This document shows, piece by piece, positions 21,776 through 64,000 of a stretch of DNA of 64,000 nucleotides. The notes under the pieces were generated by a model, which was not told the origin of the DNA, searched no databases, and saw only the letters and a program-made list of their open reading frames with translations. Source of the stretch: Escherichia coli (GTDB taxonomy: Bacteria; Pseudomonadota; Gammaproteobacteria; Enterobacterales; Enterobacteriaceae); NCBI RefSeq assembly GCF_029227855.1, contig NZ_CP074356.1. One strand, written 5' to 3'. Within the stretch, counting starts at the first letter, position 1. The number at the start of each line of letters is the position of its first letter. A program made the position numbers and the translations under genes.

Positions 21776-21928
21776 ATGCCGCAGAAATATAGATTACTTT
21801 CTTTAATAGTGATTTGTTTCACGCTTTTATTTTTCACCTGGATGATAAGAGATTCACTGTGTGAATTGCATATTAAACAGGGGAGTTATGAGCTGGCGGC
21901 ATTTTTAGCCTGCAATTTAAAAGAGTAA
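21776..21928 (+). CDS. hokA: Hok-family type I toxin (50 aa), locus not interrupted by an IS element
   Basis: MPQKYRLLSLIVICFTLLFFTWMIRDSLCELHIKQ...; the track ORF 21716-21928 adds an in-frame upstream ATG; GC hairpin ggcgggaa..ttcccgcc downstream. Confidence 0.8.
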   Translation: MPQKYRLLSLIVICFTLLFFTWMIRDSLCELHIKQGSYELAAFLACNLKE

Positions 21929-41659: not shown

Positions 41660-42023
41660 AAAGTCCTGTCCAGAAAGAAGTCGGCCTCGCAAAAATGAAT
41701 AAACCCAGTTTCTCTTGCGCAACAGGTGGAGAAGTCGAATACGCAGTATGTAAAAAATGAGGCAACAGATTCACTGGGGAGGTCGCGAGGAGGCGCAATT
41801 CTACAAAATTGCGCATTTCACTACCAGTCTGGAGTCAGCCCGGATATGAACTGCAACTATTGCAAATAAAGAAATTAAGCTGGAAGGCATCGCGCAATGA
41901 GGAAGATTGCCGGGTGCTGACAGTAAAAAGCAATCGTAAAATCAGCGGCAAGCCGAAAGGGTTCCGGTGAGGCGCAATGTTGCGGGGGCTTTATCCCTGG
42001 TGGCATTGGTTGCTGGAGAGAGA

Positions 42024-42086
42024 AAACCCCCGCACGTTGCAGGTATGTACCTGACAACATAACGGGGGCTAATCTTGAACCTAGAC
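42024..42086 (-). ncRNA. Putative Rdl antisense RNA, copy 1 (approximate)
   Basis: Placed by analogy with known LDR loci, where the antisense RNA lies opposite the ldr leader; coordinates approximate, no ends mapped. Confidence 0.3.
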
Positions 42087-42134
42087 CACTCAAGAATAGC
42101 CGCGAAACGTTGTCATTACAACACAGGCGGCTAT

Positions 42135-42242
42135 ATGACGCTCGCAGAGCTGGGCATGGCCTTCTGGCATGATTTAGCGGCTCCGGTCATTGCTGGCATT
42201 CTTGCCAGTATGATCGTGAACTGGCTGAACAAGCGGAAGTAG
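42135..42242 (+). CDS. Ldr-family toxin peptide (35 aa), copy 1
   Basis: MTLAELGMAFWHDLAAPVIAGILASMIVNWLNKRK; single TM helix with basic C-terminus. Confidence 0.8.
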   Translation: MTLAELGMAFWHDLAAPVIAGILASMIVNWLNKRK

Positions 42243-42506
42243 CGTGTCATGTGGGCGTCAGGCTGCCGTAATGGCAATTTGCGCCCGGACCAGGCCGCAG
42301 GAGTGAAACTCTGCGGCCTTTTTCGTAAGAAAAATGCAACGGTTGCAAGCGGATAATATTCTGCGGAATGCGCAGCACAGAGTGAAGATGAGACGGATTC
42401 CGGAACAGAAAAACAGTCGTAGAATCAGCGTCAAGCCGGAAGGATTCCGGTGAGGCGCAATGTTGCGGGGGCTTAATCCCTGGTGGCATTGGTTGCTGGA
42501 GAGAGA

Positions 42507-42569
42507 AAACCCCCGCACGTTGCAGGTATGCACCTGACAACACCACGGGGGCTATTCTTGCATCCAAAC
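42507..42569 (-). ncRNA. Putative Rdl antisense RNA, copy 2 (approximate)
   Basis: Same position within repeat unit 2. Confidence 0.3.
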
Positions 42570-42617
42570 AATACAAGAATAGCCGCGAAACGTTGTCATT
42601 ACAATACAGGCGGCTAT

Positions 42618-42725
42618 ATGACGCTCGCAGAACTGGGCATGGCCTTCTGGCATGATTTAGCGGCTCCGGTCATTGCTGGTATTCTTGCCAGTATGATCGT
42701 GAACTGGCTGAACAAGCGGAAGTAA
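42618..42725 (+). CDS. Ldr-family toxin peptide (35 aa), copy 2
   Basis: Identical peptide; end of track ORF 42483-42725. Confidence 0.8.
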   Translation: MTLAELGMAFWHDLAAPVIAGILASMIVNWLNKRK

Positions 42726-42989
42726 CGTGCCATGCGGGCGTCAGGCTGCCGTAATGGCAATTTGCGCCCGGATCAGGCCGCAGGGGTGAAACTCTGCGGC
42801 CTTTTTCGTAAGAAAAATGCAACGGTTGCAAGCGGATAATATTCTGCGGAATGCGCAGCACAGAGTGAAGACGTGACGGATTCCGGAACAGAAAAACAGT
42901 CGTAGAATCAGCGGCAAGCCGGAAGGGTTCCGGTGAGGCGCAATGTTGCGGGGGCTTTATCCCTGGTGGCATTGGTTGCTGGAGAGAGA

Positions 42990-43052
42990 AAACCCCCGCA
43001 CGTTGCAGGTATGCACCTGACAACATCACGGGGGCCATTCTTGAACCTGAAC
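42990..43052 (-). ncRNA. Putative Rdl antisense RNA, copy 3 (approximate)
   Basis: Same position within repeat unit 3. Confidence 0.3.
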
Positions 43053-43100
43053 AACTCAAGAATAGCCGCGAAACGTTGTCATTACAACACAGGCGGCTAT

Positions 43101-43208
43101 ATGACGCTCGCAGAACTGGGCATGGCCTTCTGGCATGATTTAGCGGCTCCGGTCATTGCTGGCATTCTTGCCAGTATGATCGTGAACTGGCTGAACAAGC
43201 GGAAGTAA
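43101..43208 (+). CDS. Ldr-family toxin peptide (35 aa), copy 3
   Basis: Identical peptide; end of track ORF 42933-43208. Confidence 0.8.
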   Translation: MTLAELGMAFWHDLAAPVIAGILASMIVNWLNKRK

Positions 43209-43294
43209 CGTGTCATGCGGGCGTCAGGCTGCCGTAATGGCAATTTGCGCCCGGACCAGGCCGCAGGGGTGAAACTCTGCGGCCTTTTTCGTGC

Positions 43295-44974
43295 TTACTG
43301 CGGGTAAGGCACCCAGTCGCCGCCGTTCAGGCGAACGTACGGTTTATCCTGGTATTGAATAACTACTGCATTTGAGTTCTCGGAGACCGGTGCTGTTTGT
43401 GGCAACCCACTGGTGAGTTTTTTCCAGTCAACATTGTCTTCGGTGAAAATCTTGCCATCAAGAACGCGAACCACCAGATCGGAGATAGCCAGGAAGCTGC
43501 TCGGTTGGTCAATGACAATCGGTGCCCCCTGATGTGGTGCCTTCATGCCGAAGAATTTCACCCCAACGGGGACGTCTGTGATAGACGGGCTAGGGATATC
43601 ACGTAGGCCAGATACCTGCATTCTGTCGCCCTTCAGCGCGCCGCCGTGTTCCGGCACCACGACCACCATCACTTTACGACCCGATTTCTCCAGTTCAGTA
43701 AAGAAGGCGTCCAGTTCATCAAAGAATTTCTGCGCCCGCGCTTTGTAATCCGCTGTTTTGCTGACCCCCGGATAATGGTTGCCGTCATGCAGTGGAAGCG
43801 TGTTGTAGAACGTGGCACTACGGCTATTTTTATCTTTTTCGGTAACGTCCAGCCAGCGGTTAAGCACGGCGGTATCGTCATAAACCGGCGAACCATCAAA
43901 GCCCAGCAAAATAACCGGCAGATTTGTTTGATCCATCAATTCAGTCTGCATGCCGCCATTTTCGCGAACTTCTTTCAAAAAACCGCCGAACTGGCCGTTA
44001 TGCCCCATCATCAGGTGCTGGGTAAAGCCCAGTTTCGAAAGGTTATCAAACAGATAGCAGTCGTTATTTGCCGGTTGATACAGATTAGTGTGCGAAGTCT
44101 GCCCGCAGCTGGCGCGCAGTAAACGGATCGCCGCCGGGCCACTGTAGGAGGTGGCGGAGTTAAAGTTCTTGAACTCAATATCGAAATGCGACCACAGTGG
44201 ATGCGACATCAACCCGGCGGCTTCTATATCCGACCAGGAAAGCGAACAGATGTTAATCACCAGTAGTTCAAATGGCTGAGCATCAGCGGGCAGCGAAGAC
44301 GGGAAGGTCGATTTACGTTTCGCCTCCGCGTTATAGAAATTATTCAGCCAGGCGTTAAGGTTCGCCGTTGTTGGCGGTGCAGTTTGTGCGGGCATATCAC
44401 CCACTACCGGTGCGCCACCCGTCGCCGCAACGGTTGCCGCTGCGTTACCACCCGTCGTTGTTACAGTGGTCGTCGGTTGTCCGGCTGGCCACAAGGAGAA
44501 ACTTGGTCCCGCCAGGGTAAGTACGTTCAGCCATAGCAGTATGGCAACCACAAAAACGGTAATGCGAATCCATTGTGACAGGAATAACCAGGCCACTAAT
44601 AAAACAAAAATGGCCCCAATCATCTGCCAGTTAATAAAGCGTGTGACAAGGTCGATTAAATAATCGGTACTGAACCCCGCCACCTGCGAACCCTGGCTCA
44701 TTATGCTTTCCGGGCCAGGCAACCAGGTGTCATGCCAGAACAAAGCAAAGCCGATCGGCAGGGCAATCCAGTGGCGCAAGCGATGCAGGCTGTAGCGCGG
44801 AATGGGCATCAGCAGAAACGCGGCAAACACCAAATTGAGGAGCGGATGGAAGTTAAGATATCCCGCCCACAACAGGCCGAACTTAACCAGAAAATAGAAG
44901 TTCCAGCCGGAAAGACCGCGCCAGTATTGCCAGAGGGAAGAAGGCATGGCGGTATTTTGTGTAAATTGAGTCAT
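43295..44974 (-). CDS. bcsG: Cellulose phosphoethanolamine transferase
   Basis: 559-aa ORF; N-terminal TM helices and alkaline-phosphatase-like domain. Confidence 0.92.
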
Positions 44975-45162
44975 TTTTTGGTTGCCCTGGCTTTTTCCGT
45001 GCGGCGTAACGTCCCGGCCGGTTTAACATAACGAGGTTTAGCAAAGAACAAACGTAAGGTGTCGCGAATGCGTCGCAAAGAGTGCCGCGCCAGATAGCCC
45101 AGCGGGAAAAATATCAGTGCGCAAACGACAATAATTTCAATGATATCGCTGATGGTCATCAT
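44971..45162 (-). CDS. bcsF: Small membrane protein of the cellulose operon
   Basis: 63-aa ORF; 4-nt overlaps with bcsE and bcsG. Confidence 0.85.
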
Positions 45163-46730
45163 GATGAGCGCTCCACAGCATCATCTAACAGTCGCATGGG
45201 TTCTGGTATTCGTCGCCAGTGGCGACCATCGTGCTCGGCATTGATGACCGGTTTAGAACTTTGCGTTAAAGGCAGCGGCATGCCCCATTGTTCTGGGGCA
45301 AGCAAGCGCATCTGCACCAGCTCGGCACTGATTTGATCATCTTCAAACCAGACCATACGGTTTGAGAAAATGTCGCCAGTAGGCAATGGGAAAATATGAT
45401 TCAACGCGGTATCCAGATCGTTAATCCGACAGAATGAGAGAAACAGCACCAGCCGATTACCGCCAATGGTCATGATATCGCCGGTACGGTTAGGGCGACA
45501 CAGCGTCAGGGCTTGTTCAACGCGGATACCCGGTACCGGACGTAGGGCAACCAGAACGCCTTTACCGTGGGCAGGCAAGAGAGGGTTATTCATCATGTTG
45601 TTGACGGCATTACAGAACACATCCCACTTCTGGAAACCACGCAGTTTGAGCGGCTGGGTCATTGACAGCAAGGTAGTGATATCTTCCGGCACATAGCGAC
45701 TAAACTTCTGCCCTTGCACGCTTTCGATCATCGTCAGACAACGGGAGAGTGGCGCATTCCACGGAATAACCATATTTGCACCGCAGGCCAATAACAAACG
45801 TTCATCGGTGGCGCGCAGGCTAGCGGTATTTTCCCGCACGAGGATTTTCATCGCACTACCGCGCTGGCGACGCAGGGTATGAATGCTGCGGGCCAGTGGC
45901 TCGATTTGCGCATTTTGCTGTAAAGAAAAGACCACCGTCGCCGCCTGAGCGGTACGGGCTTCATTGAACAGGACTTCGTTATTGTTGAACAGTTGCCAGT
46001 GTTCCGATAGCGGCGGCGCACCTTCCAGTACAGCAACATTACTCAGAATGCGTTTTTCGTCGCTGCGTGGTTGGATCTCCGCCTCTTCGCTTTGAACTAA
46101 TGTCCAGATACCATTTTGTTGCTGAACGCTAAGCTGCTGACGGGCGCTGACCCCTTTTTCGTTGCACCAGAAGGCAATATCCAGCAAATGTTGGTCACCC
46201 TGAAAACGCAAACTGGCAAGACCAAAAAGTGAACGGTATTCCTCAAGCAACAATGAAAATTGTTTATCGTTATTATTTCCGGGATTAATTACCAAAAGCG
46301 AACAATGGTTTAACCTGCTCCATTTATTCATTTTATCCAACCATGAGCGAAGCCGCTCGGCAGGAATGTTTTGCCATGCGTTATTTGCGCAAACAAGAAT
46401 AAAAAGGTAATTATGGGGATCAATAGAACACTGCAAATCACGGGTCAAATAGTATAGACCTTTTTCATGATTTAGCATTGAAAATAATTTTATTTTTTCC
46501 GGCCCTTGAGAATCATCTAATTGAAAGATTTTCGCCGGATCGCTGTCCATGCTAATGACCGCGACGTGTGCGGTTGCAGCCTGGGATGCAATTGTTTGAT
46601 TCGCCAGACTGATAGCATCTTCATGGCGATCGACGTTAAACCACCAGACGCCGCCTGCTGGCATATGTCGCAGCTCATCCCATAATGATGAGATACCGAT
46701 AGAGAATACAGGGTCCACAATGTCCCTCAT
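45159..46730 (-). CDS. bcsE: c-di-GMP-binding cellulose biosynthesis protein (GIL domain)
   Basis: 523-aa ORF; recognised as BcsE. Confidence 0.9.
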
Positions 46731-47002
46731 GTCACCATTTTGTCTGATTATCAGTTTACTAGCGAAAGCTAAGAAATAAACCTACCATTGAAATTAAAAC
46801 TTATCAGATTTAGCATGTGAATCAATTTAGAAGGTCACAAGACGTGTGATTTTAGTCTTTTCGTTTTTAACTTTTTCTGTTGCGTAACGGAAAGTCAAAA
46901 AGTGAGCAAATTCCCGTCTCGCCGTAAACAATAAACCGGCGAAATGCTCACGGTTAGAATTGTCTCATGAACGGTACGGTTATTTCATAGGGATCAAGCA
47001 AA

Positions 47003-47191
47003 ATGAATAACAATGAACCAGATACTCTGCCTGATCCCGCGATAGGCTATATCTTCCAGAATGATATTGTGGCGTTAAAGCAGGCATTTTCACTGCCTGA
47101 TATTGATTATGCCGATATTTCCCAACGCGAACAGTTGGCCGCGGCATTAAAACGCTGGCCGTTGCTGGCAGAGTTTGCGCAACAAAAGTAG
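47003..47191 (+). CDS. bcsR: Cellulose biosynthesis protein BcsR
   Basis: 62-aa ORF immediately upstream of bcsQ. Confidence 0.85.
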   Translation: MNNNEPDTLPDPAIGYIFQNDIVALKQAFSLPDIDYADISQREQLAAALKRWPLLAEFAQQK

Positions 47192-47202
47192 GGGATTGGT
47201 GA

Positions 47203-47955
47203 ATGGCCGTACTGGGATTGCAGGGGGTGCGGGGAGGCGTGGGGACAACAACCATCACCGCCGCATTAGCCTGGTCATTACAAATGTTGGGAGAAAATGT
47301 TCTGGTGGTCGATGCCTGCCCGGACAACTTGTTGCGCCTGTCATTTAATGTTGATTTTACCCACCGTCAGGGCTGGGCCAGAGCGATGCTGGATGGCCAG
47401 GACTGGCGTGACGCTGGGTTGCGCTACACCTCGCAGCTCGATTTGCTGCCTTTTGGTCAGTTATCCATTGAAGAACAAGAAAATCCACAGCACTGGCAAA
47501 CCCGGCTGAGCGATATTTGCTCCGGCTTACAGCAACTAAAAGCCAGCGGGCGTTACCAGTGGATTTTAATCGACTTACCGCGTGATGCCTCGCAGATAAC
47601 CCACCAGCTGCTGAGTTTGTGCGATCACTCGCTGGCAATCGTCAATGTGGATGCCAACTGCCATATCCGACTGCATCAGCAAGCGCTGCCGGATGGCGCA
47701 CATATTTTGATTAATGACTTCCGTATTGGCAGTCAGGTTCAGGACGATATTTACCAGCTTTGGTTGCAAAGCCAGCGCCGATTACTGCCGATGCTCATTC
47801 ATCGTGATGAAGCGATGGCTGAATGCCTGGCGGCTAAGCAACCAGTAGGTGAATATCGCAGTGATGCGCTGGCGGCTGAAGAGATACTGACGCTGGCGAA
47901 CTGGTGCCTGTTGAACTACTCCGGGCTGAAAACGCCAGTCGGGAGTGCATCATGA
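47203..47955 (+). CDS. bcsQ: Cellulose synthase localisation ATPase (MinD/ParA-like), intact
   Basis: 250-aa uninterrupted ORF; codon 6 is TTG (Leu); P-loop GGVGTTT. Confidence 0.9.
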   Translation: MAVLGLQGVRGGVGTTTITAALAWSLQMLGENVLVVDACPDNLLRLSFNVDFTHRQGWARAMLDGQDWRDAGLRYTSQLDLLPFGQLSIEEQENPQHWQTRLSDICSGLQQLKASGRYQWILIDLPRDASQITHQLLSLCDHSLAIVNVDANCHIRLHQQALPDGAHILINDFRIGSQVQDDIYQLWLQSQRRLLPMLIHRDEAMAECLAAKQPVGEYRSDALAAEEILTLANWCLLNYSGLKTPVGSAS

Positions 47956-50570
47956 GTATCCTGACCCGGTGGTTGCTTATCCCGCCGGTCAACGCGCGGC
48001 TTATCGGGCGTTATCGCGATTATCGTCGTCACGGTGCGTCGGCTTTCAGCGCGACGCTCGGCTGTTTCTGGATGATCCTGGCCTGGATTTTTATTCCGCT
48101 GGAGCACCCGCGCTGGCAGCGTATTCGCGCAGAACATAAAAACCTGTATCCGCATATCAACGCCTCGCGTCCGCGTCCGCTGGACCCGGTCCGTTATCTC
48201 ATTCAAACATGCTGGTTACTGATCGGTACATCGCGCAAAGAAACGCCGAAACCGCGCAGGCGGGCATTTTCAGGTCTGCAGAATATTCGTGGACGTTACC
48301 ATCAATGGATGAACGAGCTGCCTGAGCGCGTTAGCCATAAAACACAGCATCTTGATGAGAAAAAAGAGCTCGGTCATTTGAGTGCCGGGGCGCGGCGGTT
48401 GATCCTCGGTATCATCGTCACCTTCTCGCTGATTCTGGCGTTAATCTGCGTTACTCAACCGTTTAACCCGCTGGCGCAGTTTATCTTCCTGATGCTGCTG
48501 TGGGGTGTAGCGCTGATCGTACGGCGGATGCCGGGGCGCTTCTCGGCGCTAATGTTGATTGTGCTGTCGCTGACCGTTTCTTGCCGTTATATCTGGTGGC
48601 GTTACACCTCTACGCTGAACTGGGACGATCCGGTCAGCCTGGTGTGCGGGCTTATTCTGCTCTTCGCTGAAACGTACGCGTGGATTGTGCTGGTGCTCGG
48701 CTACTTCCAGGTAGTATGGCCGCTGAATCGTCAGCCGGTGCCATTGCCGAAAGATATGTCGCTGTGGCCGTCGGTGGATATCTTTGTCCCGACTTACAAC
48801 GAAGATCTCAACGTGGTGAAAAATACTATTTACGCCTCGCTGGGTATCGACTGGCCGAAAGACAAGCTGAACATCTGGATCCTCGATGACGGCGGTAGGG
48901 AAGAGTTTCGCCAGTTTGCGCAAAACGTGGGGGTGAAATATATCGCCCGTACCACTCATGAACATGCGAAAGCGGGCAACATCAACAATGCGCTGAAATA
49001 TGCCAAAGGCGAGTTCGTGTCGATTTTCGACTGCGACCACGTACCAACGCGATCGTTCCTGCAAATGACCATGGGCTGGTTCCTGAAAGAGAAACAGCTG
49101 GCGATGATGCAGACTCCACACCACTTCTTCTCGCCAGACCCGTTTGAACGCAACCTGGGGCGTTTTCGTAAAACACCGAACGAAGGCACGCTGTTCTATG
49201 GTCTGGTGCAGGATGGCAACGATATGTGGGACGCCACTTTCTTCTACGGTTCCTGTGCGGTGATTCGCCGTAAGCCGCTGGATGAAATTGGCGGCATTGC
49301 TGTCGAAACTGTGACTGAAGATGCGCATACTTCTCTGCGTTTGCACCGTCGTGGATATACCTCCGCGTATATGCGTATTCCGCAGGCGGCGGGGCTGGCG
49401 ACCGAAAGTCTGTCGGCGCATATCGGTCAGCGTATTCGCTGGGCGCGCGGGATGGTGCAAATCTTCCGTCTCGATAACCCGCTCACCGGTAAAGGACTGA
49501 AGTTTGCTCAGCGGCTGTGCTACGTCAACGCCATGTTCCACTTCTTGTCGGGCATTCCACGGCTGATCTTCCTGACTGCGCCGCTGGCGTTCCTGCTGCT
49601 TCATGCCTACATCATCTATGCGCCAGCGTTGATGATCGCCCTATTCGTGCTGCCGCATATGATCCATGCCAGCCTGACCAACTCGAAGATCCAGGGCAAA
49701 TATCGCCACTCTTTCTGGAGTGAAATCTACGAAACGGTGCTGGCGTGGTATATCGCACCACCGACGCTGGTGGCGCTGATTAACCCGCACAAAGGCAAAT
49801 TTAACGTCACCGCCAAAGGTGGACTGGTGGAAGAAGAGTACGTCGACTGGGTGATCTCGCGGCCCTACATCTTCCTTGTTCTACTCAACCTGGTGGGCGT
49901 TGCGGTAGGCATCTGGCGCTACTTCTATGGCCCGCCAACCGAGATGCTCACCGTGGTCGTCAGTATGGTGTGGGTGTTCTACAACCTGATTGTTCTTGGC
50001 GGCGCAGTTGCGGTATCGGTAGAAAGCAAACAGGTACGCCGATCGCACCGCGTGGAGATGACGATGCCCGCGGCAATTGCCCGCGAAGATGGTCACCTCT
50101 TCTCGTGTACCGTTCAGGATTTCTCCGACGGTGGTTTGGGGATCAAGATCAACGGTCAGGCGCAGATTCTGGAAGGGCAGAAAGTGAATCTGTTGCTTAA
50201 ACGCGGTCAGCAGGAATACGTCTTCCCGACCCAGGTGGCGCGCGTGATGGGTAATGAAGTTGGGCTGAAATTAATGCCGCTCACCACCCAGCAACATATC
50301 GATTTTGTGCAGTGTACGTTTGCCCGTGCGGATACATGGGCGCTCTGGCAGGACAGCTACCCGGAAGATAAGCCGCTGGAAAGTCTGCTGGATATTCTGA
50401 AGCTCGGCTTCCGTGGCTACCGCCATCTGGCGGAGTTTGCGCCTTCTTCGGTGAAGGGCATATTCCGTGTGCTGACTTCTCTGGTTTCCTGGGTTGTATC
50501 GTTTATTCCGCGCCGCCCGGAGCGGAGCGAAACGGCACAACCATCGGATCAGGCTTTGGCTCAACAATGA
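47952..50570 (+). CDS. bcsA: Cellulose synthase catalytic subunit (GT2 plus PilZ)
   Basis: 872 aa from MSILTRWLLIPP; QRIRW motif; 4-nt overlap with bcsQ. Confidence 0.95.
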   Translation: MSILTRWLLIPPVNARLIGRYRDYRRHGASAFSATLGCFWMILAWIFIPLEHPRWQRIRAEHKNLYPHINASRPRPLDPVRYLIQTCWLLIGTSRKETPKPRRRAFSGLQNIRGRYHQWMNELPERVSHKTQHLDEKKELGHLSAGARRLILGIIVTFSLILALICVTQPFNPLAQFIFLMLLWGVALIVRRMPGRFSALMLIVLSLTVSCRYIWWRYTSTLNWDDPVSLVCGLILLFAETYAWIVLVLGYFQVVWPLNRQPVPLPKDMSLWPSVDIFVPTYNEDLNVVKNTIYASLGIDWPKDKLNIWILDDGGREEFRQFAQNVGVKYIARTTHEHAKAGNINNALKYAKGEFVSIFDCDHVPTRSFLQMTMGWFLKEKQLAMMQTPHHFFSPDPFERNLGRFRKTPNEGTLFYGLVQDGNDMWDATFFYGSCAVIRRKPLDEIGGIAVETVTEDAHTSLRLHRRGYTSAYMRIPQAAGLATESLSAHIGQRIRWARGMVQIFRLDNPLTGKGLKFAQRLCYVNAMFHFLSGIPRLIFLTAPLAFLLLHAYIIYAPALMIALFVLPHMIHASLTNSKIQGKYRHSFWSEIYETVLAWYIAPPTLVALINPHKGKFNVTAKGGLVEEEYVDWVISRPYIFLVLLNLVGVAVGIWRYFYGPPTEMLTVVVSMVWVFYNLIVLGGAVAVSVESKQVRRSHRVEMTMPAAIAREDGHLFSCTVQDFSDGGLGIKINGQAQILEGQKVNLLLKRGQQEYVFPTQVARVMGNEVGLKLMPLTTQQHIDFVQCTFARADTWALWQDSYPEDKPLESLLDILKLGFRGYRHLAEFAPSSVKGIFRVLTSLVSWVVSFIPRRPERSETAQPSDQALAQQ

Positions 50571-50580
50571 TGATAACGCG

Positions 50581-52920
50581 ATGAAAAGAAAACTATTCTG
50601 GATTTGTGCAGTGGCTATGGGGATGAGTGCGTTCCCCTCTTTCATGACGCAGGCGACGCCAGCAACGCAACCACTGATCAATGCTGAGCCAGCTGTAGCC
50701 GCCCAGACGGAACAAAATCCGCAGGTGGGGCAAGTGATGCCGGGCGTGCAGGGCGCTGATGCGCCAGTCGTGGCGCAGAACGGTCCTTCGCGTGATGTGA
50801 AGCTGACCTTTGCGCAAATTGCGCCGCCGCCGGGCAGCATGGTGCTACGTGGCATTAACCCGAACGGCAGCATTGAGTTTGGTATGCGCAGCGATGAAGT
50901 GGTGACGAAGGCGATGCTCAACCTCGAATACACGCCATCGCCATCGTTACTGCCTGTCCAGTCGCAGTTAAAGGTTTATCTCAATGATGAGCTGATGGGC
51001 GTGCTGCCAGTGACCAAAGAACAGTTGGGTAAAAAAACGCTGGCGCAAATGCCCATTAACCCACTGTTTATTACCGACTTCAACCGTGTGCGGCTGGAGT
51101 TTGTCGGCCATTATCAGGACGTGTGCGAAAACCCGGCCAGCACCACGCTTTGGCTGGATGTTGGGCGGAGCAGTGGACTGGATCTGACCTATCAGACCCT
51201 GAATGTGAAGAATGACCTGTCACACTTCCCGGTGCCATTCTTTGATCCGCGTGATAACCGCACCAACACCTTGCCGATGGTCTTTGCGGGTGCGCCGGAT
51301 GTTGGGCTGCAACAAGCCTCTGCCATTGTCGCCTCGTGGTTTGGTTCGCGTTCTGGCTGGCGTGGGCAGAACTTCCCGGTGCTCTATAACCAACTGCCGG
51401 ATCGTAATGCCATTGTCTTTGCAACCAACGACAAACGGCCGGACTTCCTGCGCGATCATCCGGCGGTAAAAGCCCCGGTGATTGAGATGATTAACCATCC
51501 GCAGAATCCTTACGTCAAACTGCTGGTGGTGTTTGGTCGTGACGACAAAGACCTGTTGCAGGCAGCGAAAGGTATCGCTCAGGGTAACATTCTGTTCCGT
51601 GGTGAAAGCGTGGTAGTGAATGAAGTGAAACCGCTGCTACCGCGTAAGCCGTACGATGCGCCGAACTGGGTACGTACCGATCGTCCGGTCACATTTGGCG
51701 AACTGAAAACCTATGAAGAACAGTTACAATCCAGCGGTCTTGAGCCAGCAGCGATTAACGTTTCGCTAAACCTGCCGCCGGATCTCTACCTGATGCGCAG
51801 TACCGGCATTGATATGGATATTAATTACCGCTACACCATGCCGCCGGTGAAAGACAGTTCGCGGATGGATATCAGCCTGAATAACCAGTTCCTGCAATCC
51901 TTCAACCTGAGCAGCAAACAGGAGGCGAACCGCCTGCTGCTGCGGATTCCGGTATTACAAGGTTTGCTGGATGGCAAAACAGATGTCTCTATTCCGGCGC
52001 TGAAACTGGGCGCGACCAACCAGCTGCGCTTCGACTTTGAGTATATGAACCCGATGCCGGGCGGTTCGGTGGATAACTGTATTACCTTCCAGCCGGTGCA
52101 GAATCATGTGGTGATTGGTGACGACTCCACCATCGACTTCTCGAAGTATTACCACTTCATCCCGATGCCGGATCTACGCGCCTTTGCTAACGCGGGCTTC
52201 CCATTCAGCCGGATGGCGGATCTGTCGCAAACCATCACCGTGATGCCGAAAGCGCCTAACGAAGCACAGATGGAAACGTTGCTGAATACTGTTGGTTTTA
52301 TCGGCGCACAGACGGGCTTCCCGGCGATTAATCTGACGGTGACCGATGATGGCAGCACCATTCAGGGCAAAGATGCCGACATCATGATCATCGGTGGTAT
52401 CCCGGACAAACTGAAAGACGATAAGCAGATCGACCTATTGGTGCAGGCGACCGAAAGCTGGGTGAAAACACCGATGCGCCAGACCCCGTTCCCCGGCATT
52501 GTGCCGGACGAGAGCGATCGCGCGGCAGAAACCCAGTCAACGCTGACCTCTTCCGGTGCGATGGCGGCGGTGATTGGCTTCCAGTCGCCGTATAACGACC
52601 AGCGCAGCGTGATTGCGCTGCTGGCAGATAGCCCACGCGGTTATGAAATGCTTAACGATGCGGTGAACGATAGCGGCAAACGCGCCACCATGTTCGGTTC
52701 GGTCGCGGTGATCCGCGAGTCCGGTATCAACAGCCTACGTGTTGGCGACGTTTATTACGTAGGTCATCTGCCGTGGTTCGAGCGCTTGTGGTATGCGCTG
52801 GCAAACCATCCGATTCTGCTGGCGGTGCTGGCGGCTATCAGTGTGATATTGCTGGCATGGGTACTGTGGCGTCTGCTGCGAATTATTAGTCGTCGTCGTC
52901 TTAACCCGGATAACGAGTAA
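50581..52920 (+). CDS. bcsB: Cellulose synthase periplasmic subunit
   Basis: 779 aa from MKRKLFWICAVAMGMSAFPS; C-terminal TM anchor. Confidence 0.93.
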   Translation: MKRKLFWICAVAMGMSAFPSFMTQATPATQPLINAEPAVAAQTEQNPQVGQVMPGVQGADAPVVAQNGPSRDVKLTFAQIAPPPGSMVLRGINPNGSIEFGMRSDEVVTKAMLNLEYTPSPSLLPVQSQLKVYLNDELMGVLPVTKEQLGKKTLAQMPINPLFITDFNRVRLEFVGHYQDVCENPASTTLWLDVGRSSGLDLTYQTLNVKNDLSHFPVPFFDPRDNRTNTLPMVFAGAPDVGLQQASAIVASWFGSRSGWRGQNFPVLYNQLPDRNAIVFATNDKRPDFLRDHPAVKAPVIEMINHPQNPYVKLLVVFGRDDKDLLQAAKGIAQGNILFRGESVVVNEVKPLLPRKPYDAPNWVRTDRPVTFGELKTYEEQLQSSGLEPAAINVSLNLPPDLYLMRSTGIDMDINYRYTMPPVKDSSRMDISLNNQFLQSFNLSSKQEANRLLLRIPVLQGLLDGKTDVSIPALKLGATNQLRFDFEYMNPMPGGSVDNCITFQPVQNHVVIGDDSTIDFSKYYHFIPMPDLRAFANAGFPFSRMADLSQTITVMPKAPNEAQMETLLNTVGFIGAQTGFPAINLTVTDDGSTIQGKDADIMIIGGIPDKLKDDKQIDLLVQATESWVKTPMRQTPFPGIVPDESDRAAETQSTLTSSGAMAAVIGFQSPYNDQRSVIALLADSPRGYEMLNDAVNDSGKRATMFGSVAVIRESGINSLRVGDVYYVGHLPWFERLWYALANHPILLAVLAAISVILLAWVLWRLLRIISRRRLNPDNE

Positions 52921-52926
52921 TTGAAG

Positions 52927-54033
52927 ATGAATGTGTTGCGTAGTGGAATCGTGACGATGCTGCTGTTGGCTGCCTTTAGTGTTCAGGCAGCCTGTACCTG
53001 GCCTGCCTGGGAGCAGTTTAAAAAGGATTACATCAGTCAGGAAGGGCGCGTCATCGACCCCAGCGACGCGCGCAAAATCACCACCTCCGAAGGGCAAAGT
53101 TACGGTATGTTCTTTGCCCTGGCGGCTAACGACCGTGTAGCTTTCGATAATATTCTCGACTGGACGCAGAACAATCTCGCTCAGGGCTCTTTAAAAGAAC
53201 GTTTGCCCGCCTGGCTGTGGGGCAAGAAAGAGAACAGTAAGTGGGAAGTGCTGGACAGCAATTCGGCCTCCGATGGTGATGTCTGGATGGCCTGGTCGTT
53301 GCTGGAGGCGGGGCGTTTGTGGAAAGAGCAGCGTTATACCGACATCGGCAGCGCGTTGCTAAAACGTATCGCGCGGGAGGAAGTGGTGACGGTGCCTGGG
53401 CTGGGTTCCATGTTGTTACCGGGCAAAGTGGGTTTTGCTGAGGATAACAGCTGGCGTTTTAACCCCAGCTACCTGCCGCCGACGCTGGCGCAGTATTTCA
53501 CCCGCTTTGGCGCGCCGTGGACCACGCTGCGCGAAACCAATCAACGTTTATTGCTGGAAACCGCCCCGAAAGGTTTTTCGCCAGACTGGGTGCGCTATGA
53601 GAAAGACAAAGGCTGGCAGCTAAAAGCCGAAAAAACATTGATCAGCAGCTACGACGCTATCCGCGTTTACATGTGGGTAGGCATGATGCCTGACAGCGAT
53701 CCGCAAAAAGCGCGGATGCTCAACCGGTTTAAACCGATGGCGACATTCACTGAGAAAAACGGTTATCCGCCGGAAAAAGTGGATGTGGCTACGGGGAAAG
53801 CGCAGGGTAAAGGACCGGTCGGTTTTTCTGCCGCCATGCTGCCCTTTTTACAAAACCGCGATGCGCAGGCCGTTCAGCGCCAGCGCGTGGCCGATAACTT
53901 TCCCGGCAGCGATGCCTATTACAACTATGTGCTGACCCTGTTTGGACAAGGCTGGGATCAACACCGTTTCCGCTTCTCGACAAAAGGTGAGTTATTACCT
54001 GACTGGGGCCAGGAATGCGCAAATTCACACTAA
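52927..54033 (+). CDS. bcsZ: Endo-1,4-beta-glucanase (GH8)
   Basis: 368 aa from ATG 52927 ([13 protein letters not shown]); track ORF begins at TTG 52921. Confidence 0.92.
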
Positions 54034-57569: not shown

Positions 57570-59558
57570 TTGCGCGTAAGTCGCTCGTTAACAATCAAGC
57601 AGATGGCAATGGTGGCAGCCGTTGTCCTGGTGTTCGTTTTTATTTTTTGCACCGTTTTGCTGTTCCATCTGGTCCAGCAGAATCGCTATAACACGGCTAC
57701 GCAACTGGAAAGCATTGCTCGCTCTGTCCGCGAACCCTTATCTTCAGCTATTTTGAAAGGCGATATTCCCGAAGCGGAAGCTATTCTTGCCAGCATTAAA
57801 CCGGCAGGCGTGGTCAGCCGTGCCGATGTAGTGCTGCCTAACCAGTTCCAGGCGCTGCGTAAAAGTTTTATTCCAGAGCGCCCGGTGCCGGTAATGGTTA
57901 CTCGCCTGTTTGAGCTACCGGTTCAAATCTCGCTGGGCGTTTACTCGCTCGAACGTCCGGCAAACCCGCAGCCAATTGCCTATCTGGTACTACAGGCGGA
58001 TTCCTTCCGTATGTATAAGTTCGTGATGAGCACCCTCTCAACGTTAGTGACCATTTACTTACTTTTGTCGCTTATCCTGACCGTCGCCATCAGCTGGTGC
58101 ATTAACCGCCTGATTTTGCATCCGTTACGCAATATTGCTCGCGAACTTAACGCCATCCCAGCCCAGGAGCTTGTTGGTCACCAACTGGCATTACCGCGTC
58201 TGCATCAGGACGATGAAATCGGTATGTTGGTGCGCAGTTACAACCTCAACCAGCAATTGCTGCAGCGCCATTATGAAGAACAGAACGAAAATGCGATGCG
58301 CTTCCCGGTGTCGGATTTGCCGAACAAAGCCTTGCTGATGGAGATGCTGGAGCAGGTTGTCGCGCGTAAACAAACCACCGCGCTGATGATCATCACCTGT
58401 GAAACCCTGCGTGATACTGCGGGCGTGCTGAAAGAGGCGCAACGAGAAATTCTGCTGCTGACGCTGGTGGAAAAACTCAAATCGGTACTGTCGCCACGTA
58501 TGATCCTCGCGCAGATTAGCGGTTATGACTTTGCTGTCATTGCCAACGGTGTACAGGAACCGTGGCACGCAATCACCTTAGGTCAGCAAGTGCTCACTAT
58601 CATGAGCGAGCGCCTGCCGATTGAACGTATTCAACTCCGTCCGCACTGTAGCATTGGCGTGGCGATGTTCTACGGCGATCTCACCGCCGAACAGCTTTAC
58701 AGTCGCGCTATTTCTGCGGCATTTACCGCTCGCCATAAAGGCAAGAATCAGATTCAGTTCTTTGATCCGCAGCAGATGGAAGCCGCCCAGAAGCGGTTGA
58801 CGGAAGAGAGCGATATCCTTAATGCACTGGAAAATCATCAGTTTGCAATTTGGTTACAGCCACAGGTCGAGATGAGCAGCGGTAAACTGGTCAGTGCGGA
58901 AGTGTTACTGCGTATCCAGCAACCGGATGGCAGTTGGGACCTGCCGGATGGCTTAATCGATCGCATTGAGTGCTGTGGGCTCATGGTTACCGTCGGTCAC
59001 TGGGTGCTGGAAGAGTCCTGTCGATTGCTTGCAGCCTGGCAAGAGCGCGGCATTATGCTGCCCTTGTCGGTAAACCTCTCTGCGCTGCAACTGATGCACC
59101 CGAATATGGTGGCGGATATGCTGGAACTGTTAACCCGCTATCGCATTCAGCCGGGAACACTGATTCTGGAAGTGACAGAAAGCCGACGTATTGACGACCC
59201 TCATGCTGCGGTGGCAATCCTCCGTCCGCTGCGCAATGCCGGAGTTCGGGTGGCGCTGGATGATTTCGGCATGGGCTACGCAGGGCTGCGTCAGCTGCAG
59301 CATATGAAATCGTTGCCAATCGACGTACTGAAAATCGACAAAATGTTTGTTGAAGGCTTGCCGGAAGATAGCAGCATGATTGCTGCAATTATCATGCTGG
59401 CGCAGAGCCTGAACTTACAAATGATTGCCGAAGGCGTGGAGACTGAAGCACAACGCGACTGGCTGGCAAAAGCGGGCGTTGGTATTGCCCAGGGCTTCCT
59501 TTTTGCTCGCCCACTCCCTATTGAAATCTTCGAAGAGAGTTACCTGGAAGAAAAGTAG
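57570..59558 (+). CDS. pdeK: c-di-GMP phosphodiesterase (HAMP-GGDEF-EAL membrane protein)
   Basis: 662-aa ORF as in track (begins at TTG 57570, GGGGAG RBS upstream); EAL motif region present. Confidence 0.88.
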
Positions 59559-59704: not shown

Positions 59705-61239
<1,535 letters not shown>

Positions 61240-61390
61240 TCTTTCATCGGATTCTGAAAACGGGTGGCAATGGCTGCCCGTTTTTATTTTCTCCGCACAT
61301 TGTGTGAGCTTTTGCGATATTCTGAAAAAATGAGAATTCAGGCATAACGTCTTTCTCAGATCATAAAAAACATCGCAAACAGGGAACGCA

Positions 61391-63038
61391 TGGAAATCTC
61401 TTCACCATACTGATAATGACCCTCGTGGTCTCGCTGTCCGGGGTGGTCACTCGTGTCATGCCCTTTCAGATCCCGCTTCCGCTTATGCAAATCGCCATCG
61501 GTGCGCTACTGGCGTGGCCGACGTTTGGTTTGCATGTGGAGTTTGATCCTGAACTCTTTTTAGTCTTGTTTATCCCGCCGTTGCTGTTCGCTGATGGCTG
61601 GAAAACGCCGACCCGTGAATTTCTCGAACATGGTCGAGAGATTTTTGGCCTCGCGCTGGCGCTGGTGGTGGTCACCGTGGTCGGCATTGGCTTCCTTATT
61701 TACTGGGTGGTGCCGGGCATTCCGCTGATCCCCGCCTTTGCGCTGGCGGCGGTACTTTCTCCGACCGATGCTGTGGCGCTCTCCGGATTGTTGGCGAAGG
61801 GCGTATCCCGAAAAAAATCATGGGCATTTTGCAGGGCGAAGCGTTGATGAATGACGCTTCCGGCCTGGTGTCGTTGAAGTTTGCCGTAGCAGTGGCGATG
61901 GGGACGATGATCTTCACCGTCGGCGGTGCGACGGTCGAATTTATGAAAGTAGCCATTGGCGGTATTCTCGCCGGTTTTGTGGTTAGCTGGCTGTACGGTC
62001 GCTCGCTGCGATTCCTCAGCCGCTGGGGCGGTGATGAACCCGCGACGCAGATCGTCCTGCTGTTCCTGCTGCCATTCGCTTCTTATCTGATTGCCGAACA
62101 TATTGGCGTTTCCGGCATCCTCGCTGCGGTTGCCGCCGGGATGACCATCACCCGCTCCGGTGTGATGCGCCGTGCGCCGCTGGCAATGCGCCTGCGTGCA
62201 AACAGCACCTGGGCGATGCTGGAATTTGTCTTTAACGGCATGGTGTTCCTGCTGTTAGGTCTGCAGCTGCCGGGTATTCTGGAGACGTCGCTGATGGCAG
62301 CAGAAATCGACCCTAACGTCGAAATCTGGATGCTGTTTACCGATATTATTCTGATATATGCGGCGCTGATGCTGGTCCGTTTTCGGCTGGCTGTGGACGA
62401 TGAAAAAGTTCAGCAACCGCTTCCTGAAGAAGAAGCCGATGGAGTTTGGTTCGTGGACCACACGAGAAATCCTGATCGCGTCTTTCGCCGGGGTGCGTGG
62501 GGCGATCACTCTGGCCGGTGTGCTCTCTATCCCGCTGCTCTTGCCGGATGGTAACGTCTTCCCGGCGCGCTATGAGCTGGTGTTCCTGGCGGCTGGCGTC
62601 ATTCTCTTCTCGCTGTTTGTCGGCGTGGTGATGTTGCCTATTCTGCTACAACACATTGAAGTCGCGGACCATTCGCAACAATTGAAAGAGGAACGTATTG
62701 CGCGAGCGGCAACGGCAGAAGTGGCGATTGTGGCGATCCAGAAAATGGAGGAGCGTCTGGCGGCGGATACCGAAGAGAATATCGATAACCAGCTGCTTAC
62801 GGAGGTCAGTTCTCGCGTCATTGGTAACCTGCGTCGTCGCGCCGATGGACGTAACGACGTTGAAAGTTCCGTGCAGGAAGAGAACCTTGAGCGTCGCTTC
62901 CGTCTGGCGGCATTGCGTTCTGAACGTGCTGAACTTTACCACCTGCGCGCCACGCGGGAGATCAGCAACGAAACGCTGCAAAAATTACTGCACGATCTCG
63001 ATTTGCTTGAAGCGTTGCTAATTGAGGAAAATCAGTAA
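61391..63038 (+). pseudogene. yjcE: CPA1-family Na+/H+ exchanger (YjcE-like), split by at least three 1-nt indels
   Basis: Track ORFs 61416-61847, 61820-62554 and 62400-63038 in three frames together form one exchanger; presumed start ATG near 61391 is followed by an early stop. Confidence 0.75.
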
Positions 63039-63075
63039 GCCGAAAGCGACGTAACCAGGCCCGAGGTAATCTGAA

Positions 63076-63099
63076 AAAGGTGCAATCTTTTGCACCTTT
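63076..63099. terminator. Bidirectional hairpin between convergent yjcE-like and yjcF-like genes
   Basis: aaaggtgcaa-tctt-ttgcaccttt perfect stem flanked by A and T runs. Confidence 0.5.
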
Positions 63100-63226
63100 A
63101 ACAGGTTAGCTCGGGCTAACATTCATGATTCTAAAAAAAATAAGTTATCTCTCTTGTAAAGTCAATTCATTGGCTGTTCTTCGACTTAACCTCAATCTGC
63201 GTGTTGCATAATATCTGCAGTAATCT

Positions 63227-64000
63227 TCATAGCGACTGCATTAATATTATCCTCAGTTTTTGTGACATGCCAGTATGAGAGGTACAATCTTCTTCAAAGA
63301 ATTTCTGTAGTGTTACCAGGGTATCACTATCAATGGGGATATTTTCCTCCCCACGGAGAATGGAAATGCCCATTCCCTGGACGCTAGCCTCATCAAAATT
63401 AACCCGATAGAGACGGGTATTAAACATACAGGCTTTTGTTAAAATAGAACAGTTGAAATGGCAGTTGCTTAAATTGGCATTATTAAAATTAACATTAGCC
63501 ATATTAGAGCCGGTACATATAACCATTTCGAGGAATGTATTTGTCAGCCACGTACAAAAGAGTTTGCTATCAATTAAGTTTATATTCTGGAGGATTGCTT
63601 TGTTCAGATTGACGCGAGACAGATCAGCATGTTCAAAGTTAATTAAATCGAGTTTAGAGAAACTAAGGTCGGCTTTAAATAAATTAACATATGGCGCTAT
63701 TACTTTATAAAGATTTACCTCAGCCATGTACGCCATATAAAATTTGAATAGTCAAGGAAGGTGTTTTTAATATTGGCTCTATTCATTGCTGCATTGTAGA
63801 ATTGAACATGCATAGCGGAGCATGCATTTAGAGTTCCGTCGGCCATTTTTATCTGAGCGAAATTTGAGTCATCGAGAATACAATTATCAAAAAGTATTTT
63901 TTCCATTATGGCGTAATAAAAATTCGTTTTATACATATTACAGTCCTGGAAAATAGCGTTTTGTAGTCTGCAACCTGCAAAATTCGAATTGGATAAATCT
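63227..64000 (-). pseudogene. yjcF: Pentapeptide-repeat protein (YjcF-like) C-terminal part, frameshifted and cut by the window edge
   Basis: Track ORFs 63227-63736 and 63715-63936 on the minus strand in different frames, both with pentapeptide repeats (ADLSRVNLNKAIL, NVNFNNANLSNCHF). Confidence 0.6.

Follow-up and report, generated by a model that had tools for sequence, protein, structure and literature searches.

The stretch of DNA analysed here, 64,000 nucleotides long and referred to as the window, carries a bcs locus for cellulose synthesis and secretion. The locus raises the question whether an uninterrupted bcsQ, in a cluster where the other genes look complete, is enough to call the strain cellulose-proficient and not derived from K-12, as an earlier note on this DNA had done. 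We found a wild-type bcsQ and a full-length cluster in a strain that is not K-12, and we suggest that a substitution in the catalytic subunit, BcsA C432Y, probably reduces or abolishes cellulose synthesis.

The bcsQ gene and its product

The bcsQ gene encodes the SIMIBI/MinD-like ATPase BcsQ. The gene and the codon that separates it from the K-12 allele are:

47203..47955, plus strand, bcsQ, intact open reading frame of 250 codons with an ATG start
47218..47220, plus strand, bcsQ codon 6, TTG (Leu); TAG in the same place in K-12 MG1655 (NC_000913)

The list of open reading frames and the translation, which starts MAVLGLQGVRGGVGTTT and has no internal stops, agree with the earlier description of an uninterrupted gene of 250 codons with TTG at codon 6. 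Compared with MG1655, the gene has equal length and 751 of 753 nucleotides are identical, codon 6 accounting for one of the two differences. The corresponding K-12 pseudogene, b3534, has the same locus and length, but reads TAG at codon 6, so that the early stop ascribed to K-12 strains is indeed found in MG1655 and the K-12 null allele (TAG at codon 6, 17T>A) is absent from the window. This mutation, TTG to TAG, arose in the ancestor of K-12, and its repair, as in strain AR3110, restores cellulose (PMC5944007, PMC4287979).

To obtain allele frequencies, we placed codon 6 at the centre of a 61-mer, in its TTG or TAG version, and counted exact matches in 5426 complete E. coli genomes. The TTG version was found in 3551 genomes and the TAG version of K-12 in 349; all 60 of the matches listed for the latter are laboratory strains derived from K-12, among them MG1655, DH5alpha, C600, J53 and DH1. 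The remaining genomes, matching neither 61-mer, mostly possess the locus with other polymorphisms nearby. An intact bcsQ is the normal state in E. coli; the allele is the ordinary wild type, already known, and does not set the strain apart.

The same holds for the protein. BcsQ matches PF06564 (CBP_BcsQ) with 383.2 bits, against a cut-off of 21.3, over protein residues 1-236 and profile positions 1-234 of 234. It is 100% identical to WP_000279528.1 of strains NCTC8623 and O104:H4, and the exact sequence is present on at least 1000 contigs. The translation of K-12 BcsQ (BCSQ_ECOLI) is equal to it except at codon 6, a stop in K-12 and Leu here. All 250 residues align with PDB entry 6YBU, with 2 substitutions: where BcsQ of strain 1094 (structures 6YAR, 6YBU and 9FNN) has N172 and K249, the window encodes D172 and A249, positions that are not among the functional residues in PMC7840130. 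The deviant Walker A motif G8VRGGVGTTT is present, and the functional residues defined in PMC7840130 and PMC8892547 (R10, T16, T17, C39, D150, N152, R156 and N171) are all kept.

In brief, BcsQ belongs to the SIMIBI/MinD-type NTPases and has a deviant Walker A motif. It forms ATP-bound BcsR2Q2 'sandwich' dimers with BcsR, interacts with BcsE and is brought to the PilZ region of BcsA by way of BcsF; secretion requires BcsQ, and mutation of N152, R156 and N171 progressively abolishes calcofluor binding (PMC7840130, PMC8892547). ATP binding, the interaction with BcsR and BcsE and the role in cellulose secretion are known for a near-identical protein (PMC7840130).

Organization of the bcs cluster

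The bcsQ gene is located between bcsR and bcsA, and shares with the latter the 4-nt ATGA overlap expected of translationally coupled genes. The other features of the cluster, and the gene adjoining it, are:

43295..44974, minus strand, bcsG, phosphoethanolamine transferase of 559 aa, same length as in K-12
44971..45162, minus strand, bcsF, 63 aa, identical to K-12
45159..46730, minus strand, bcsE, c-di-GMP-binding regulator of 523 aa, intact
46731..47002, bcsE-bcsR intergenic region, divergent promoter region of 272 nt, identical to K-12
47003..47191, plus strand, bcsR (yhjR), partner of BcsQ, 62 aa, PF10945, identical to K-12
47952..50570, plus strand, bcsA, catalytic subunit of 872 aa with a PilZ domain, full length
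50581..52920, plus strand, bcsB, 779 aa, protein identical to that of O104:H4 and NCTC8623
52927..54033, plus strand, bcsZ, GH8 endoglucanase of 368 aa
54015..57488, plus strand, bcsC, TPR protein and outer-membrane channel of 1157 aa, identical to NCTC8623
57570..59558, plus strand, pdeK (yhjK/hmsP), c-di-GMP phosphodiesterase gene adjoining bcsC, intact

A gene-by-gene comparison with MG1655 bears out the view that bcsRQABZC and bcsEFG are complete and that the genes other than bcsQ are full length: all nine bcs genes have equal lengths and the same starts and stops, with no internal stops, and no nonsense or frameshift mutation was found in any of the nine. All nine Bcs proteins match their Pfam families far above threshold, and the 14.4 kb cluster has approximately 100% identity with bcs clusters annotated in numerous E. 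coli genomes; chance open reading frames are therefore no concern. The presence of bcsE and bcsG alongside bcsRQABZC and bcsF, in divergent operons, is that of a type II cluster. Compared with the E. coli-like type II Bcs secretion system (PMC8892547), the window has the same nine genes in the same order, divergent arrangement and lengths, but departs from it in the FFCGS motif of BcsA, which reads FFYGS.

The 4-nt overlaps that had been taken as typical of the operon hold for bcsQ/bcsA, bcsE/bcsF and bcsF/bcsG only. At the other junctions there are gaps of 11 nt (bcsR-bcsQ), 10 nt (bcsA-bcsB) and 6 nt (bcsB-bcsZ), and bcsZ and bcsC overlap by 19 nt.

BcsR, BcsQ, BcsB and BcsZ have the same protein sequences as in O104:H4, and all Bcs proteins except BcsA are identical to alleles found in other strains. 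The frameshift at codon 448 of bcsE in the O104:H4 outbreak strain was looked for; this codon is CCA in the window, and the frameshift is thus absent. At codon 80 of bcsG (window position 44736) the window, K-12 and O104:H4 all encode W80, so the L80 of NCTC8623 is private to that strain and does not belong to the window.

In two E. coli genomes, NZ_CP086391.1 and NZ_CP024155.1, an IS1-family element interrupts the stretch that matches window positions 46900-48100, covering bcsR, bcsQ and the start of bcsA. Such an insertion is a further natural route to disruption of bcsRQABZC.

A private substitution in BcsA

The departure in BcsA stems from one codon:

49245..49247, plus strand, bcsA codon 432, TAC (Tyr) instead of TGC (Cys), a private missense change

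Residues 430-434 read FFYGS in place of FFCGS (DATFFYGSCAV in the window, DATFFCGSCAV in K-12). Position 432 is Cys in K-12, O104:H4 and NCTC8623, and C432Y is the sole coding variant in the bcs genes that the window shares with none of K-12, O104:H4 and NCTC8623. The nearest genome, NCTC8623, shows 2 nt differences over the 14.4 kb cluster, one of them in bcsA codon 432. A 61-mer covering this codon gave no exact match among the 5426 complete E. coli genomes when it carried TAC, and matched 1108 of them when it carried TGC. The exact BcsA protein (WEP40879.1 / WP_275877466.1) is on record from 1 contig only, of 4.87 Mb, and the other proteins read from the same protein cluster have FFCGS in 14 of 14 cases.

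The bcsA gene differs from that of K-12 by 33 nucleotides and only 2 amino acids. Amino acid changes in BcsA were not seen in group A E. coli strains either (PMC5944007), and these two observations indicate that BcsA is under strong purifying selection.

The protein matches the GT2, Cellulose_synt and PilZ families of Pfam. The other motifs of a processive GT2 synthase with a PilZ domain are in place: DDG at residue 312, DCD (DxD) at 360, TED at 455, QRIRW (QxxRW) at 493, RRSHR (RxxxR) at 696 and DFSDGG (DxSxxG) at 723; FFCGS, the acceptor-site motif, is the one that is not. Taken as a whole, the sequence is plainly that of BcsA, with this one functional motif altered.

The site for the acceptor glucose lies where the membrane channel opens, with FFCGS at its back and QxxRW at its front, and in BcsA of R. 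sphaeroides the backbone carbonyl of Cys318 hydrogen bonds the acceptor glucose (PMC4849487, PMC10237404). Chitin synthases have VLPGA in the corresponding place. A literature search for mutagenesis of Cys318 (C318) in BcsA found nothing relevant, and the 2024 paper on the E. coli Bcs structure makes no mention of C432.

The range of residues accepted at this position was assessed by scanning 1.84 billion cluster representatives (clusters at 50% identity) in full with HMMER and taking the top 150 BcsA homologues, 35-100% identical. Among the 142 that cover the site, the Cys column holds C in 133, S in 4, A in 3 and T in 2; none of these 142 diverse homologues has an aromatic or large residue there. 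In a profile of segment 300-560, built from 131 homologues with less than 90% identity, Y432 scores 5.8 bits below C432, a modest penalty.

Cellulose phenotype

Since homologues take only small residues (C, S, A or T) at position 432, we consider that Tyr is most likely harmful. A Tyr in the FFCGS loop would hinder positioning of the acceptor or the donor, and poor positioning would in turn reduce cellulose synthesis or cause its loss. Judged from the sequence, the chance that C432Y impairs synthesis is somewhat better than even. It is about an even call that C432Y represents a genuine natural allele with lost or reduced function in the acceptor-site loop.

Cellulose synthesis also depends on the trans-acting genes csgD, dgcC and rpoS, which are all located outside the window. 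Strains BL21 and H10407 have full-length bcs genes and are nevertheless calcofluor-negative (PMC5944007). Of the earlier prediction that the strain is cellulose-proficient, the part that stands is the complete set of open reading frames; proficiency itself is not secure, given C432Y, regulators encoded elsewhere and the existence of full-length, calcofluor-negative strains. The integrity of the reading frames does not by itself justify the label, because C432Y is probably impairing. The earlier check was for nonsense and frameshift mutations and was blind to missense changes; C432Y was thus overlooked, and the prediction was over-confident.

It is possible, though we regard it as rather unlikely, that the cluster is fully functional, that C432Y is tolerated and that cellulose is made under inducing conditions. 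All nine reading frames are intact, the promoter region between bcsE and bcsR is the same as in K-12, the remaining BcsA motifs are all present, and the BcsR, BcsQ, BcsB and BcsZ proteins are those of O104:H4, whose operon is reported to be identical in the cellulose-positive EAEC strain 55989 (Richter et al., PMC4287979). The documented contact of the Cys is made by its backbone carbonyl (PMC4849487), so a change of side chain might be tolerated if it points away from the sugar. Against this, Tyr is found in 0 of 142 homologues at a column with only C, S, A and T, and C432Y, known from one genome alone, affects a protein that is subject to strong purifying selection. Strains with intact reading frames may also be calcofluor-negative (PMC5944007), and neither csgD, dgcC nor rpoS is covered by the window.

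Impairment through C432Y, the reading we prefer, has parallels in natural alleles with loss of cellulose. These include the bcsE frameshift of O104:H4, a bcsE stop in ATCC 8739 and, in ST95, a bcsA frameshift at aa 186, BcsA W55* and BcsQ Q178* (PMC5944007, PMC4287979, PMC10881479). Each is likewise a lineage-restricted mutation in an otherwise complete cluster. The known alleles are nonsense or frameshift mutations with measured phenotypes, whereas C432Y is a missense change with a predicted effect. Loss-of-function mutations in bcs genes recur across E. coli lineages (PMC10881479; for bcsE of O104:H4, PMC4287979).

The dctA junction and the last 4 kb of the window

Downstream of the bcs cluster, dctA (window 59741-59896) is truncated after approximately 50 codons, and the window stops being colinear with any E. 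coli genome at 59891/59892. Past this point the window continues with the ghxP-yjcE-yjcF locus, beginning exactly at the ATG of ghxP (yjcD). In K-12 the ghxP locus is approximately 600 kb from dctA and in opposite orientation, and the dctA-ghxP junction was found in 0 of the 5426 complete E. coli genomes. Compared with strain GB089, window positions 59897-64000 contain eight homopolymer-length differences, which frameshift ghxP, yjcE and yjcF:

60387, 60496, 61399, 61785, 62380, 63257-63258 and 63739, homopolymer-length differences relative to GB089

The preceding 59.9 kb, which contain the bcs genes, have no indels relative to the nearest genomes. For the dctA-ghxP join, one possible explanation is a genuine inversion across the origin region with local decay, the other a chimeric or mis-assembled artefact. 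The homopolymer pattern in 59897-64000 looks more like unpolished long-read sequence or artificial decay than like evolution.

This region bears on the idea that the deposited genome contains a base-calling or assembly error at codon 432, in which case the true BcsA would be wild-type and the locus unremarkable. The eight homopolymer-length differences and the unprecedented junction in the last 4.1 kb suggest local assembly problems, and the variant is known from a single record. We nevertheless regard an error as improbable: C432Y is a substitution (G to A) outside any homopolymer, and the site lies within 59.9 kb that show no indels and a handful of SNPs compared with the nearest genomes.

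Origin of the strain

The prediction that the strain is not derived from K-12 is borne out by the divergence around the cluster, by the ldr/rdlD copies and by a hokA without IS150. An alignment of 17 kb around bcs with MG1655 has 130 mismatches, including 33 in bcsA and 38 in bcsC. The closest relatives in the genome collection include NCTC8623 and ETEC and STEC isolates, and window positions 1-59896 are colinear with wild isolates, approximately 100% identical and free of indels.

Between yhjV and bcsG (window 41920-43292) we found three tandem units of approximately 483 bp, where K-12 has a single ldrD/rdlD; the Ldr difference described before thus consists of three copies here and one in K-12. 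Each unit encodes one Ldr toxin and one rdlD antisense RNA (Rfam RF01813):

42021-42086, minus strand, rdlD antisense RNA
42135-42242, plus strand, Ldr toxin open reading frame
42504-42569, minus strand, rdlD antisense RNA
42618-42725, plus strand, Ldr toxin open reading frame
42987-43052, minus strand, rdlD antisense RNA
43101-43208, plus strand, Ldr toxin open reading frame

The number of ldr/rdlD copies varies among strains; in O104:H4 there are four, including a frameshifted one.

The hokA difference from K-12 was also recovered. In the window hokA (21776-21928) directly follows glyS and has no IS150; this is judged from the annotation of EC23-1020, a genome with 0 differences over window positions 1-23151. 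In K-12, IS150 lies between hokA/mokA and sokA.

A K-12 derivative with a repaired bcsQ does exist in AR3110, which has a sense codon at position 6 (PMC4287979), and the window does not differ from K-12 in bcsR, in bcsF or between bcsE and bcsR, but we reject such a source as virtually impossible, as it is already refuted by the divergence from MG1655 (130 mismatches in 17 kb), with three ldr/rdlD units instead of one, hokA without IS150 and near-identity to wild isolates also against it.

Implications

The K-12 stop in bcsQ is a well-documented defect of a laboratory lineage, and the intact bcsQ mostly confirms that the source is wild-type and not K-12. The BcsA C432Y lead is of modest added value. 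The locus illustrates that integrity of reading frames is insufficient for predicting a phenotype, as the synthase of this cluster has a private and radical substitution within an active-site motif that hardly varies.

Should C432Y inactivate BcsA, the matrix of the strain would be curli-only or otherwise altered, a state that in other E. coli has been linked to stronger inflammation and greater virulence (PMC4287979, PMC10881479). The substitution would then be another independent case of convergent cellulose attenuation, as in ST95 and O104:H4, and a natural probe of the rule that only small residues occupy this position of FFCGS.
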